DNA of 32,000 nt, from positions 1 to 32,000 of the forward strand of contig NC_000908.2 in the NCBI RefSeq assembly GCF_000027325.1, in the 5' to 3' direction. Origin of the DNA: Mycoplasmoides genitalium G37. Lineage in GTDB: Bacteria > Bacillota_I > Bacilli_A > Mycoplasmatales > Mycoplasmoidaceae. Made by a program: the position numbers and the translations under genes. Below, piece by piece: positions 12,068-15,369 of the stretch (position 1 is the first letter of the stretch; each line of letters begins with the position of its first letter). Under the pieces are notes generated by a model. That model searched no databases. It was given only the letters and a program-made list of their open reading frames with translations, and was not told the DNA's origin.

Positions 12068-12724
12068 ATGGATGTTAGAACTGAAAGATTAAACGAATTG
12101 TTTTTTGTTTATCATAAAAACTTAAAAAATCAATCTAAATCTAAATATAGCAGAGCAGTTAATTACTTAAAAAGGCGTGGATTCAATTTACAAGATTTTT
12201 TAAAAGTTGGGGGTGGTGTTGGTTATTTACAAAATAAAGAATGATTAAATTTACCTTTATACAGTTTTGATGGTAATTTAATTGGTTTTCTAAACAGAAA
12301 AGTTAGTTATAAAAAGGAATTTTTATATACACCTTTTAATAAACCTCCTTCAAAGAGCGAAGCTTTTGTAGGACTCAGAGAATTAGTTATTAAAGACAAT
12401 AGCATATATCTTGTTGAAGGTGATTTTGACTGGTTAGCTTTTCGCAAAGCAGGTATATTAAATTCTCTTCCTCTTTGTGGTTTGACTATTTCAAATCAAC
12501 AAGTTCAATGATTAAAACAAAAAAAGATTAAAAAGATTTTTATCTGTTTTGATAATGATTTAGCTGGAAAGAATGGAGCAAAAAATTTAAAAGAATATCT
12601 AACTAAGCAAGGATTTATAACAAAAGTTATAGAAATTAAAGCTGCCGCAAAAGACTGAAATGATTTGTTTTTATTAAACAACTCAAATTGATCAGCGGTT
12701 TTAACTAATCAACTTCTTTTTTAA
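12068..12724 (+). CDS. DnaG-related protein, TOPRIM core only (no zinc ribbon, no DnaB-binding domain)
   Basis: 218-aa ORF under code 4. It carries a TOPRIM glutamate in YLVEGDFDW (E at 12416-12418) and a DxD in FDNDLAGKNGA (12551-12559). Upstream, the stretch YLKRRGFNLQDFLKVGGGVGY resembles the DnaG RNA-polymerase core. The first 100 residues have no Cys/His cluster. Confidence 0.8.
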
Positions 12725-13564
12725 GAATTTTTTAAATTTACTAATAATTGTTCTGATAATTATTTTAGTGATATTTAAATCTGGACAAAGCTGAACTAAA
12801 GCTCTCGCACCAGCAGCATCTTCAATTTCATTAACAATAACCCTATTATATCTATTTAAAAAGAAGTCAATAGCATAATAACCTTCCCTTAGGCGTTTAG
12901 CTATTTTCTTTATTTTTCTTTTAGTAAATCACTTTAATTTAAACAAGGAAACTTCAGCACCTTGTGAAAAGTTAGCTTTAAATTGATTAGCATTAGAAAT
13001 TTTTTTAATAACTTTAATTATTTTTCCAAACAAAATATAAGCACGATATTCAACTGTGCCAATTGATAAAAAAGGTTGAACAATTCATTCTGTTGCATTT
13101 TCAATGTTTAAATGTTTGATCTCGTCAGCACTATTAACTAAATGTACATCTTTTCCACCGTGTGAATTACGTTTCTTAACGATGACAGGAAATGATTTGA
13201 TTGTTTCTTTACTAAGAAGAGAAGAATTGACAGTTAGAAATCTATTTTGTTTTAATCATTTATATGTTTCGTATTTATCGTTTGCTATAAAAACAACATT
13301 AAAAGGATTAACTAAAAAAGTATTTATTTGATTATTGGTTTTTAAAAAATCTACTTTTCTTGAACGATTTAAAATCAATTCAGCTTCATTAATTTTAGCT
13401 TCGAAATTAATGTCTTTATTTTCAAGTAATAAGACTTCAGCATTTAGTTTTTTCTTTTGTAATTCCTTGATTAGACTTAAAGCAAATGTTTGATTTTTTT
13501 CAAAATCATCCTTGTTGTCATAAACAACTAATGCTTTTCTGTTTTTTAATTTAATTTTTCCCAT
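12701..13564 (-). CDS. ATP-grasp ligase, RimK-like paralog 1
   Basis: Translated by hand on the minus strand from ATG (13564) through TGA codons to TAA (12703-12701), giving 287 aa. The motifs FPVIVKKRNSHGGKDV, FKANFSQGAE and YYAIDFFLN..VIVNEIEDAAG parallel the neighbouring paralog and the RimK/glutathione-synthetase ATP-grasp fold. Confidence 0.8.
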
Positions 13565-13568
13565 TAAT

Positions 13569-14432
13569 CTAAATTGCTTTTAAAAGCTCAATTGCAAGAT
13601 TAGTATTTAAATACATTGAGCTTCTTGTTAATTGCACATTAGGATTTACTTCACAAAAGATCAATGATCTGTCTTGATCAAACAAAAAATCAATACCGCA
13701 ATAAAAAAGTTGCATTACTTTACTAATTTTAACTGCTAAATTTTCTTGTTCCTTATTCAAAAAAAAGCGTTCTGCCTTTGCCCCTTTATTGAGATTAGAA
13801 CGAAAATCACTATTATTAGTTGTATGTAAAGCACCTATAACTTTATTGTTCACAACAATAACTCTTACCGATTCACCTTTAGAGCAAGTAATGTATTTTT
13901 GCACAATTGCTTGTTGATTAAAAGACATTAAAGTTTTTCTTAATTTTTGTTCATCTAAACACAAAAAAACATAATCACCAAAAGAACCAAAAACACTTTT
14001 AACAATAACAGGAAACTCCATACTTTGTTTTATTTGATTAATAAAAACATCGAGCATTACTGGATTTCACTCCCTGTCAAAATTTTGAGGTCCTAAAAGT
14101 GTTTTAATCTGCTTTATGAATGGATATTGTGCAATGATAGCGTGACTAAGTCCTTTATTATCTGCATTGTTAATTCCAATTGAACTGTTAATTACTTCAA
14201 AACCATTGCTTTCTAGTCATCTAGCTAAAGCAATATTTTTATCCATAAAAAGAATTTTGTTGGATATGAAGGGTAAATTTGCTTTTGCTTTAGTTGTATT
14301 AATATCAAAACTAGTAAAGAATTTTAGTTCTATATCTAACTCTTCACTAGCATTTTTTAAAAGTTGAGTTTGATTTAATTTAGAGCTAATTGGATTAAAT
14401 GCTGGATTGTAAACAACGTTTATTTTTTTCAT
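13569..14432 (-). CDS. rimK: ATP-grasp alpha-L-glutamate ligase, RimK family, paralog 2
   Basis: Fragments 14432-14217 and 14057-13569 are in one frame and joined through TGA (hand translated, no TAA/TAG), giving 287 aa. Motifs are FPVIVKSVFGSFGD, FRSNLNKGAKAE and CGIDFLFD..LIFCEVNPN. Confidence 0.85.
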
Positions 14433-15216
14433 GCAATATTCAAAGATTTTTTATTATTGCTAAAACTGTAAAAGGGCCAACACCGCCAGGCGTTTTAGTT
14501 CATCATCTAGCTTTTTTTTCAATGCCTTCAGGATTTATATCACCACAAAGTTTATTTTGCTTGTTTCTTGAAACACCTATATCAAATAAAATAACTCCTT
14601 TTTTAAAGTTTTTAGCTTGAAAAAAATGAGATTTTCCAATAGCAGTAAAAACTATATCAGCACTTTTAATCAATTCAAATGTATTTGGAGTATCTTTATC
14701 GCATGCTTGAACTTTATAACCACTAGTTTTTAAAAATTCATAAATAGGTTTGCCACCAGTTATTCCCAAACCTACCACAACAATTTTTTGATTATTAAAT
14801 TCAAGGTTAAATAGTTCTTTTAGTGTTATTATAGCTTCAACTATACAAGGTTTAATTTCAGCCAAATGATTAGTTGTTAAACCATCAACATCTTTTAAAG
14901 GATTAATTGCTTCTAGTAGTGAGTTTTTATCTAAGTGTGGATAAACTGGCAATTGCAAAATGATACCAGTAACATTTACATCATGATTTAAACTAATTAT
15001 TTTTTCTATTAACTCTGCTTGAGTTATTTGATTAGATAGTTTAATTAATTCACTTTTTGCTCCTACAGTGTTACAAGCAATAAGTTTTTGTTTAATAAAA
15101 CTGTCTGATGAATCATCATCATTAGCTTGAATAATCACTAACTTACATTTTGATCAATCAAAATTCTTGTAAGTTTCTAAGATTGATTGCGCTTTTAGTT
15201 TTCCATCAAATGACAT
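14395..15216 (-). CDS. folD: Bifunctional methylenetetrahydrofolate dehydrogenase/cyclohydrolase
   Basis: The ATG at 15216 gives MSFDGKLKAQ..., which matches the usual FolD N-terminus (M..IDGK). DVDG and TPGGVGP motifs are present. The ORF reads through tandem TGA-TGA at 14500-14505 to TAA at 14397-14395 (273 aa). A longer upstream start is possible but would lie inside a terminator hairpin. Confidence 0.88.
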
Positions 15217-15293: not shown

Positions 15294-15369
15294 TGGTGGA
15301 GATGAAGGGTCTCAAACCCTCAACCTCCTGAGTGCAAATCAGGTGCTCTATCAGTTGAGCTACATCCCC
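15294..15369 (-). tRNA. tRNA-Ala (anticodon UGC), CCA encoded
   Basis: The reverse complement folds as a cloverleaf: acceptor GGGGATG/CATCTCC with the G3:U70 alanine identity pair, anticodon loop TTTGCAC, and 3' ACCA. Length is 76 nt. Confidence 0.95.

Follow-up and report, generated by a model that had tools for sequence, protein, structure and literature searches.

A coupled folD and ATP-grasp ligase locus in Mycoplasmoides genitalium and its possible role in folate-tail ligation

We analyzed the first 32,000 nucleotides of the genome of Mycoplasmoides genitalium G37 (contig NC_000908.2, positions 1 to 32,000; hereafter the window). Our subject is a minus-strand locus in it that contains folD and two RimK-like ATP-grasp ligase genes, named P2 and P1 (Table 1). 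The genome is a single contig of 580,076 bp, and open reading frames (ORFs) were read under genetic code 4, in which TGA encodes tryptophan. P1 and P2 are ancient paralogues. The folD ORF is open from a TTG at 15315. Its likely start is the ATG at 15216, which matches the N-termini of orthologues (MSFDGK... or M..LDGKK...). The folD product scores 94 bits on PF00763 and 116 bits on PF02882. On the FolD models of NCBIfam it reaches up to 173 bits, which is under their equivalog cut-offs.

The end of folD overlaps the beginning of P2, and P1 begins only a few nucleotides after the P2 stop codon. Both features were claimed in a first-pass annotation of the window and are read directly in the sequence. 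The overlap likely has a role in translational coupling. The best explanation for the arrangement is that folD, P2 and P1 form one translationally coupled unit. Between 12400 and 15600, promoter-like sites are fewer than in shuffled sequence, and no terminator meeting the criteria of the scan was found. We take P1, P2 and folD to be MG_011, MG_012 and MG_013 from the gene order, P2 being the gene annotated 'rimK'. A published orthologue table pairs these with MPN015, MPN016 and MPN017 of M. pneumoniae (PMC4332154).

Two ATP-grasp ligases with conserved catalytic residues

P2 is a member of the RimK family, as it scores 199 bits on PF08443 (cut-off 21) and 317 bits on TIGR00768 (cut-off 143.4). 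P1 is a more divergent relative, with 38 bits on PF08443 and 60 bits, under the cut-off, on TIGR00768. BLASTP aligns the two proteins with 26% identity over 124 residues (E 6e-8). Profiles of the two families, built from about 70 homologues each, align over 277 columns with a probability of 100% and 17% identity. Against solved structures, the P1 family profile matches ArgX (3vpb) with 109 bits and RimK with 90 bits. The homology of P1 and P2 had been proposed from shared motif blocks. It is correct, although the block given as 'NE[VI]' reads NEIED in P1 and CEVN in P2. Their equal length of 287 residues, also taken as a signal, is true here; we dropped it because orthologues range from 269 to 301 residues, which makes the equality a coincidence of this species.

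AlphaFold models computed from homologue alignments have a mean predicted local distance difference test score of 94.4 for P1 and 93.7 for P2, and a predicted template modeling (TM) score of 0.91 for each. The best match of the P1 model in the PDB is ArgX (3vpb, TM 0.79, E 1e-20). Those of the P2 model are RimK (5zct, TM 0.79) and ArgX (3vpb, TM 0.80). Both models superpose over their full length on ArgX, LysX and RimK (TM 0.79-0.82). The three-domain ATP-grasp fold, with the ATP-binding lysine, the glycine-rich loop and the acidic magnesium ligands, is found in P1 and in P2.

The conservation pattern points in the same direction. Residues K145, G149, S150, G152, Q178, R190, D209, F210, N213, D248, E261 and N263 of P2 do not vary in 68 homologues. 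In P1, R67, K97, K130, R174, F195, N198, D233, N245, E246, E248 and D249 do not vary in 72 homologues. The ATP-grasp signature is thus fixed in both families: the phosphate-binding lysine, the glycine-rich loop, the 'DFRSN' block with its arginine and asparagine, and the acidic magnesium ligands. A change specific to P1 is E-x-E in place of the usual E-x-N. Because the signature residues are invariant and the models are confident, neither P1 nor P2 is a decayed copy. Sequence and models together indicate that both are complete, catalytically competent ligases of the RimK/LysX/ArgX type.

For P2, the best characterized equivalogs are LysX/ArgX (TIGR02144, 89 bits, cut-off 275.6), MptN (NF040720, 78 bits, cut-off 350) and CofF (TIGR04443, 61 bits, cut-off 300). 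They rank above the true RimK, represented by the S6--L-glutamate ligase model NF007764 (55 bits, cut-off 331). The order is the same in clostridial, archaeal and Bacillus members. P1 scores 37, 32 and 33 bits on the LysX/ArgX, MptN and CofF models, all under the cut-offs, and does not match the S6 ligase model. Mur-ligase middle and C-terminal domains are found in neither protein, so any likeness to FolC would be functional only.

Table 1. Coordinates of the folD-P2-P1 locus, an overlapping gene, and genes of the same genome outside the window that are discussed in the text
Feature	Position	Strand	Description	Basis
folD	14395-15216	-	Bifunctional methylene-tetrahydrofolate dehydrogenase/methenyl-tetrahydrofolate cyclohydrolase; first gene of the coupled unit	Pfam and orthologue starts
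folD 3' end/P2 5' end	14395-14432	-	Overlap of 38 nt	Read directly from sequence
P2 (P0002)	13569-14432	-	RimK-family ATP-grasp carboxylate-amine ligase, 287 aa	PF08443, TIGR00768, AlphaFold model
P2/P1 spacer	13565-13568	-	4 nt from P2 stop to P1 start (ATG)	Read directly from sequence
P1 (P0001)	12701-13564	-	Divergent RimK/ArgX-like ATP-grasp ligase, 287 aa; ancient paralogue of P2	PF08443, family profile, AlphaFold model
TOPRIM-only primase-like gene	12068-12724	+	3' end overlaps P1 3' end convergently by 24 nt (12701-12724)	
Candidate S component	391848-392225	-	Weak folate-family match, outside the window	41 bits (cut-off 60)
Candidate S component	124573-125034	+	Weak folate-family match, outside the window	32 bits (cut-off 60)
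Ribosomal protein S6 gene	116926-117552		Outside the window	

The wider gene order of the window includes dnaN, then gyrBA, then mnmE, tatD, the TOPRIM fragment, P1/P2/folD and two ABC exporters. Genes for tRNA-Ile and tRNA-Ala lie upstream of folD-P2-P1 on the same strand.

The P2-P1 pair in mollicutes and beyond

Among 299 genomes of the order, P2-like genes are found only in the family of the window genome; the 218 genomes of the 14 other families have none. Within the family, 11 of 101 genomes, including our own, have a P2-like match. Nine of these carry the P2-P1 pair, namely the window genome, six congeners (11 were sampled) and the two genomes of a second genus. The remaining two have more distant P2-like homologues only.

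Five further Mycoplasmoides species retain folD-P2-P1 in this order and with overlapping frames; M. testudinis, M. alvi and a genome that we take to be M. pneumoniae are among them. In M. amphoriforme, folD and P2 are still coupled and P1 is located elsewhere in the genome. The folD/P2 overlap measures 11-29 nt in six other species, and the P2/P1 junction in five other species ranges from a 23-nt overlap to a 1-nt gap. The identity of P2 across these Mycoplasmoides falls to 36%. Flanking genes are syntenic with the window only in the nearest relative. The trio is kept while the flanks differ, which indicates that folD-P2-P1 persists as a module through rearrangement. The first-pass annotation had regarded the overlapping and abutting frames as meaningful, and their recurrence in other species argues that they did not arise by chance. 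No remnants of the pair were found beside folD in five congeners that lack it.

Two other gene neighborhoods were seen in the family. A thymidine kinase gene (PF00265, 183 bits at locus L020) is convergent next to folD-P2-P1 in several Mycoplasmoides species (loci L017, L018, L020, L021 and L022); it is not in this position in the window genome. In another genus, a lone and distant P2-like ligase gene (27% identity; locus L025, 7176-8060, plus strand) directly follows pyrF (PF00215, 193 bits). The genes upstream of pyrF were read by eye as pyrB, pyrC, pyrK and pyrD, and a PAPS-reductase-like gene lies downstream of the ligase gene.

Outside the mollicutes the pair is an old and widespread cassette of ancient paralogues that are inherited together. 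A search with the P1 alignment against one genome per species returned more than 535 relatives, and the best 80 loci were analyzed. They come from Clostridia (Ruminococcus, Lachnospiraceae, Eubacterium, Acutalibacteraceae and others), a few Bacillaceae, Methanomassiliicoccales and mollicutes. At 63 of these 80 loci, a P2-type gene is directly before the P1-type gene on the same strand, most commonly with a 4-nt overlap. A tree of 153 sequences separates a P1 clade from a P2 clade, with 99% support for each and parallel internal groups. This indicates an ancient duplication, after which the two genes moved together. Within the P2 clade, the mollicute sequences form one group (96%) and the archaeal sequences are nested among those of Firmicutes. 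Of 401 clostridial species sampled at random, 13 carry P1, always adjoining P2. Whatever its acceptor, the obligate P2-P1 pair is an uncharacterized branch of the RimK family.

Natural fusions link the two proteins further. A search with the P1 profile against 1.84 billion representative proteins gave 954 matches at E<=1e-30. The top matches are single proteins of 565-593 residues, with a P2-type half followed by a P1-type half. Fusion in the same order as the genes is good evidence that P2 and P1 act on one process, as had been proposed. A fusion to FolC was not seen among the top 150 matches. Lone P2-like genes occur in about 30 of the 401 clostridial species, and the 1.5 kb around them contain no folC, folD or fhs.

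The proposal of a stable hetero-oligomer fared less well. In published size-exclusion data, MPN015 is confined to the earliest fractions (762 kDa and above) and MPN016 to low-mass fractions near the monomer range, both with weak signals (PMC4332154 supplement). Size-exclusion chromatography with mass spectrometry thus places the M. pneumoniae orthologues of P1 and P2 in different size fractions, which gives no support to such a complex under the conditions used. Both proteins are detected by mass spectrometry in that species, where MPN016 is classified as essential and MPN015 as a fitness gene (PMC4332154 supplement). Both orthologues are non-essential in M. genitalium, and folD is essential in both species (PMC4332154 supplement). 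The gene 'rimK' is among those without variants across M. pneumoniae strains (PMC4537597).

Several further partners of the pair were observed. The neighbors of the cassette are otherwise lineage-specific and mixed (FtsK, ClpP-like, sigma factor, BlaI/BlaR1, YkuD, signal recognition particle, CCA enzyme, amylase, SpoIID and others). Apart from folate genes and one amidohydrolase-like partner, no functional theme was found to recur across lineages. This partner, a protein of about 220 residues with a sub-threshold likeness to N-formylglutamate amidohydrolases (PF05013, E 0.001-0.04), is encoded directly upstream of P2-P1 at no fewer than seven loci in at least four clades (for example L048, 2300-2977, plus strand; L085, 4423-5082, plus strand; and L151). 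Often alongside it is the gene for a tail-anchored protein of about 445 residues with one C-terminal membrane helix (for example L048, 2974-4338, plus strand). The same protein is fused to P1 in a 715-residue representative (P0088; 30% identity over 372 residues). These two proteins are candidate tail-trimming and anchoring partners. By analogy with RimB, the companion of RimK, the amidohydrolase-like protein would fit tail trimming whatever the acceptor. An RNase H domain (PF00075, 31-38 bits, cut-off 25.8) is fused to the N-terminus of P2 in three genomes (L145, 4978-6765; L146, 5607-7295; L147, 5455-7149; all minus strand). In two related genomes, an RNase H-like protein of about 245 residues (58-61% identity) is encoded separately just upstream (L149, 8644-9381, minus strand; L151, 5665-6417, plus strand).

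Folate neighbors and alternative substrates

Five evolutionarily separate settings place folate genes beside the pair: Mycoplasmoides, the second mollicute genus, Methanomassiliicoccales, Bacillus sp. REN3 and a Lachnospiraceae-type clade. In the second mollicute genus, known from two genomes including 'Ureaplasma sp. Hg1', an operon with overlapping frames encodes an energy-coupling factor (ECF) S component, P2 and P1, in this order. The best NCBIfam match of this S component is the folate-family model TIGR04518 (49 bits, cut-off 60), with riboflavin next at 17-20 bits. Its only matches in the PDB are four FolT chains. Such an operon, in which ligases come after an uptake component, has the classic layout for salvage and trapping. 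In Methanomassiliicoccales and Bacillus sp. REN3, folC (TIGR01499, 349-355 bits) divergently adjoins P2-P1. In one Lachnospiraceae-type clade, the gene fhs for formate-tetrahydrofolate ligase (PF01268, 931 bits) is located after P1 on the same strand at nine loci; it is the immediate neighbor in six and lies nearby in three. By a rough and post hoc estimate, about 0.8 folate adjacencies would be expected by chance over about 55 distinct contexts, whereas five independent ones were counted (Poisson P ~0.001).

In the M. genitalium genome, which is 98.9% complete, no folC or other Mur-ligase gene was found, as the first-pass hypothesis of folate glutamylation presupposed. The sole match to PF08245 is a 17-bit fragment. 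Two weak matches to folate-family ECF S components are present outside the window and are candidate uptake components (Table 1). To explain why mycoplasmas lack folC, three options had been raised earlier, 'a novel type of FPGS' among them (PMC1971073). Our literature search found no link between RimK-like ATP-grasp ligases and folate, and no main-text discussion of MG_011/MG_012 or MPN015/MPN016.

On the reading that we favor, P2-P1 may be a two-enzyme folate-tail ligase. In these mycoplasmas, which lack FolC, no other enzyme would glutamylate folate, and in other hosts the pair would work beside FolC. We regard this as plausible while stopping short of calling it probable. A fuller version is put forward a little more tentatively. 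P2 and P1 could form an undescribed two-component ATP-grasp ligase, unrelated to FolC and FolC2, that adds alpha-linked or other non-canonical residues to the folate tail. It could be the sole such activity in FolC-less Mycoplasmoides, and the tail-modifying partner of FolC in gut Clostridia, some Bacillaceae and Methanomassiliicoccales.

A number of points weigh against a folate role. The FolT assignment is under the model cut-off, and the PDB matches behind it are weak (E 0.01-0.1). The fhs link comes from a single lineage, which equally conserves ftsK on the other side. None of the 13 cassettes from the random clostridial sample has folD, fhs, folC or FolT within about 7 kb. Mycoplasma operons often mix unrelated genes. 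The RNase H-P2 fusion of one clostridial subgroup and the fusion of P1 to the tail-anchored protein do not suggest folate. De Crecy-Lagard et al. favored 'no polyglutamylation needed' for mycoplasmas (PMC1971073). Nor does folD require the pair. Among 101 family genomes, 84 were found to have folD, five to have folC, and 11 to have the pair or P2-like genes. In five congeners, and in most of the family, folD occurs with neither folC nor the pair, which indicates that the pair is not needed for folate use.

The idea that the pair substitutes for FolC does not hold as a role of the whole family. A canonical folC is also present in each of the five non-mollicute carriers tested, and in the archaea and one Bacillus the pair adjoins it. 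As the pair coexists with and adjoins folC outside the mollicutes, it is not simply a FolC analogue. A search for FolT beside folC in folC-positive mollicutes, as a sign of positional replacement, gave one genome in which a gene with five transmembrane segments precedes folC; it is not recognizably FolT. The first-pass hypothesis is partly supported. The conserved unit, the lack of folC, and the occurrence of the pair beside a FolT-like S component, folC and fhs strengthen the folate link well beyond the single adjacency first seen. The S6 alternative is weakened, and 'FolC substitute' is too narrow a description.

The main rival explanation is that the pair attaches amino acids to a different small carboxylate, or that its product is a free peptide or polymer, and that its folate neighbors are operon happenstance. 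Examples would be an N-acyl-glutamate-type metabolite, as made by mammalian RimK-like enzymes, or poly-alpha-glutamate, as made by RimK in vitro. Members of the RimK family act on varied carboxylates (RimK, LysX, MptN, CofF, RIMKLA/B). Most clostridial cassettes have no folate neighbor, and both the recurrent amidohydrolase-like partner and the tail-anchored protein that adjoins the pair and is fused to P1 speak in favor of this explanation. However, this explanation leaves five independent folate-gene juxtapositions unexplained, two of them in mollicutes and one in archaea, as well as the coupling to a vitamin-uptake S component. In a minimal genome that encodes almost no biosynthesis, few other carboxylate acceptors would be available. 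We consider this alternative unlikely, though it deserves serious attention. The function must suit both wall-less Mycoplasmoides and Methanomassiliicoccales, which removes peptidoglycan or sporulation roles. A peptidoglycan-related role had been considered from the YkuD, BlaI/BlaR1 and SpoIID neighbors in Clostridia and was ruled out, as the cassette is kept in wall-less hosts.

Modification of a protein C-terminus, with P1 and P2 as two subunits, is improbable in our view. True RimK needs a terminal glutamate on ribosomal protein S6. In M. genitalium S6 ends in ...KKGAKP, and in five other pair-bearing species it ends in ...PQGE, ...KDKQ, ...KGNK, ...KKKK and ...QGQE. With no conserved acidic C-terminus to extend, S6 is unlikely to be the substrate of P2 or P1. 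The C-terminal extensions of Mycoplasmoides S6 are long, highly variable and mostly basic, giving totals of 182-475 residues; a typical bacterial S6 has about 100-135 residues. A protein target would agree with the passing score of P2 on the RimK-family model and with RimK as its best structural match. The RNase H domain fused to P2 in some Clostridia is a nucleic-acid-related partner, and the trimming-hydrolase-like partner parallels RimB (PMC10092738). P2 is also listed as RimK by annotation (PMC4014445; PMC4332154 supplement). The assignment of MG_012 as RimK, adding glutamates to the S6 C-terminus, is annotation only, and its odd restriction to two species led to a suggestion of lateral transfer (PMC4014445). 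Against a protein target, P2 scores far under the cut-off of the S6 ligase equivalog, and no conserved small ORF or other candidate target was found beside the pair. True RimK acts alone as a homotetramer (PMC10092738), and the M. pneumoniae orthologue of P2 elutes at a size in the monomer range. Loading of an amino acid onto a LysW-like carrier for amino-acid biosynthesis, as by LysX or ArgX, is close to refuted. It is suggested by the sequence and structure matches of P1 to ArgX and LysX and by LysX as the best equivalog of P2. However, both proteins score far under the LysX/ArgX cut-off. No LysW-like ORF turned up in the genome in a crude pattern search, and none of the 80 loci has a conserved small ORF beside the pair or lysine or arginine pathway genes downstream. 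To our knowledge, mycoplasmas also lack amino-acid biosynthesis.

Proposed mechanism, comparison with known ligases and significance

The data show the gene structure, the fold and catalytic residues, the joint inheritance and natural fusion of P2 and P1, the recurrent folate neighbors and the lack of folC and of an acidic S6 tail. For a folate-tail ligase, the acceptor, the amino acid added, its linkage and the division of labor between P1 and P2 are inferred. The two proteins would work jointly, either in two steps or as the two subunits of one ligase. Both would convert a carboxylate to an acyl phosphate and attach an amino acid to it, with L-glutamate as the prime candidate. The likeliest acceptor is the glutamate end of folate (pteroyl-glutamate) imported by an ECF transporter. 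Through the pair, the cofactor of FolD, GlyA, ThyA and Fmt may acquire a short tail or have one extended. In a cell that lacks FolC, such a tail would favor retention of the cofactor and its affinity for enzymes. Outside the mollicutes, the pair may modify or extend the tail made by FolC. Parallels would be CofF, which caps the F420 tail made by CofE, and MptN, which glutamylates tetrahydromethanopterin.

MptN and CofF are the most instructive relatives. These archaeal enzymes of the same family add alpha-linked glutamate to small-molecule cofactors, tetrahydromethanopterin and gamma-glutamylated F420, respectively. The acceptor of MptN is a folate analogue, as proposed for the pair. CofF acts once a non-homologous gamma-glutamyl ligase has done its part, and the pair is proposed to stand in the same relation to FolC. 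Both are among the best equivalogs of P2, after LysX. The differences are that P2 scores far under the cut-offs of both models, that the ligases come as a pair and not singly, and that the cofactor of the hosts here is folate, not tetrahydromethanopterin or F420; mollicutes are not known to make either of the latter.

RimK of E. coli and Pseudomonas (PDB 4iwx, 5zct, 7qyr) shares the fold and catalytic residues. Unlike the obligate pair of paralogues described here, it is a homotetramer encoded by a single gene, and the S6 of pair-bearing hosts does not have its acidic tail. Of the solved structures, LysX and ArgX (PDB 3vpb, 3vpd, 5k2m) come nearest to P1 (TM 0.79-0.80) and just as near to P2. 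They show that the family can activate the gamma-carboxyl of a C-terminal glutamate. Unlike them, the pair has no LysW-like partner or pathway genes. FolC/FPGS, encoded with FolT in salvage operons, is similar in the proposed role, ATP-dependent glutamylation of imported folate. The S component-then-ligase logic is also seen in the Hg1-type genomes. Its fold is unrelated to that of the pair.

The pair is located in an intensively modeled minimal genome. Its label as RimK for S6 modification, in annotations and in the literature on the translation apparatus, is contradicted by the sequence evidence. Transposon mutants of M. genitalium exist, and the natural fusion proteins are available for expression. 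Alpha-glutamyl extension of folate was described biochemically in E. coli in the 1980s (mentioned in PMC1971073), and a folate role of the pair, if true, would provide a gene-level candidate class for it. It would also explain how mycoplasmas without FolC hold on to salvaged folate and use it, a question raised by the comparative folate-pathway analysis of 2007, and would correct metabolic and whole-cell models. Beyond the mycoplasmas, the 954 cluster representatives would then represent a widespread cofactor-tailoring system in gut Firmicutes and methanogens.

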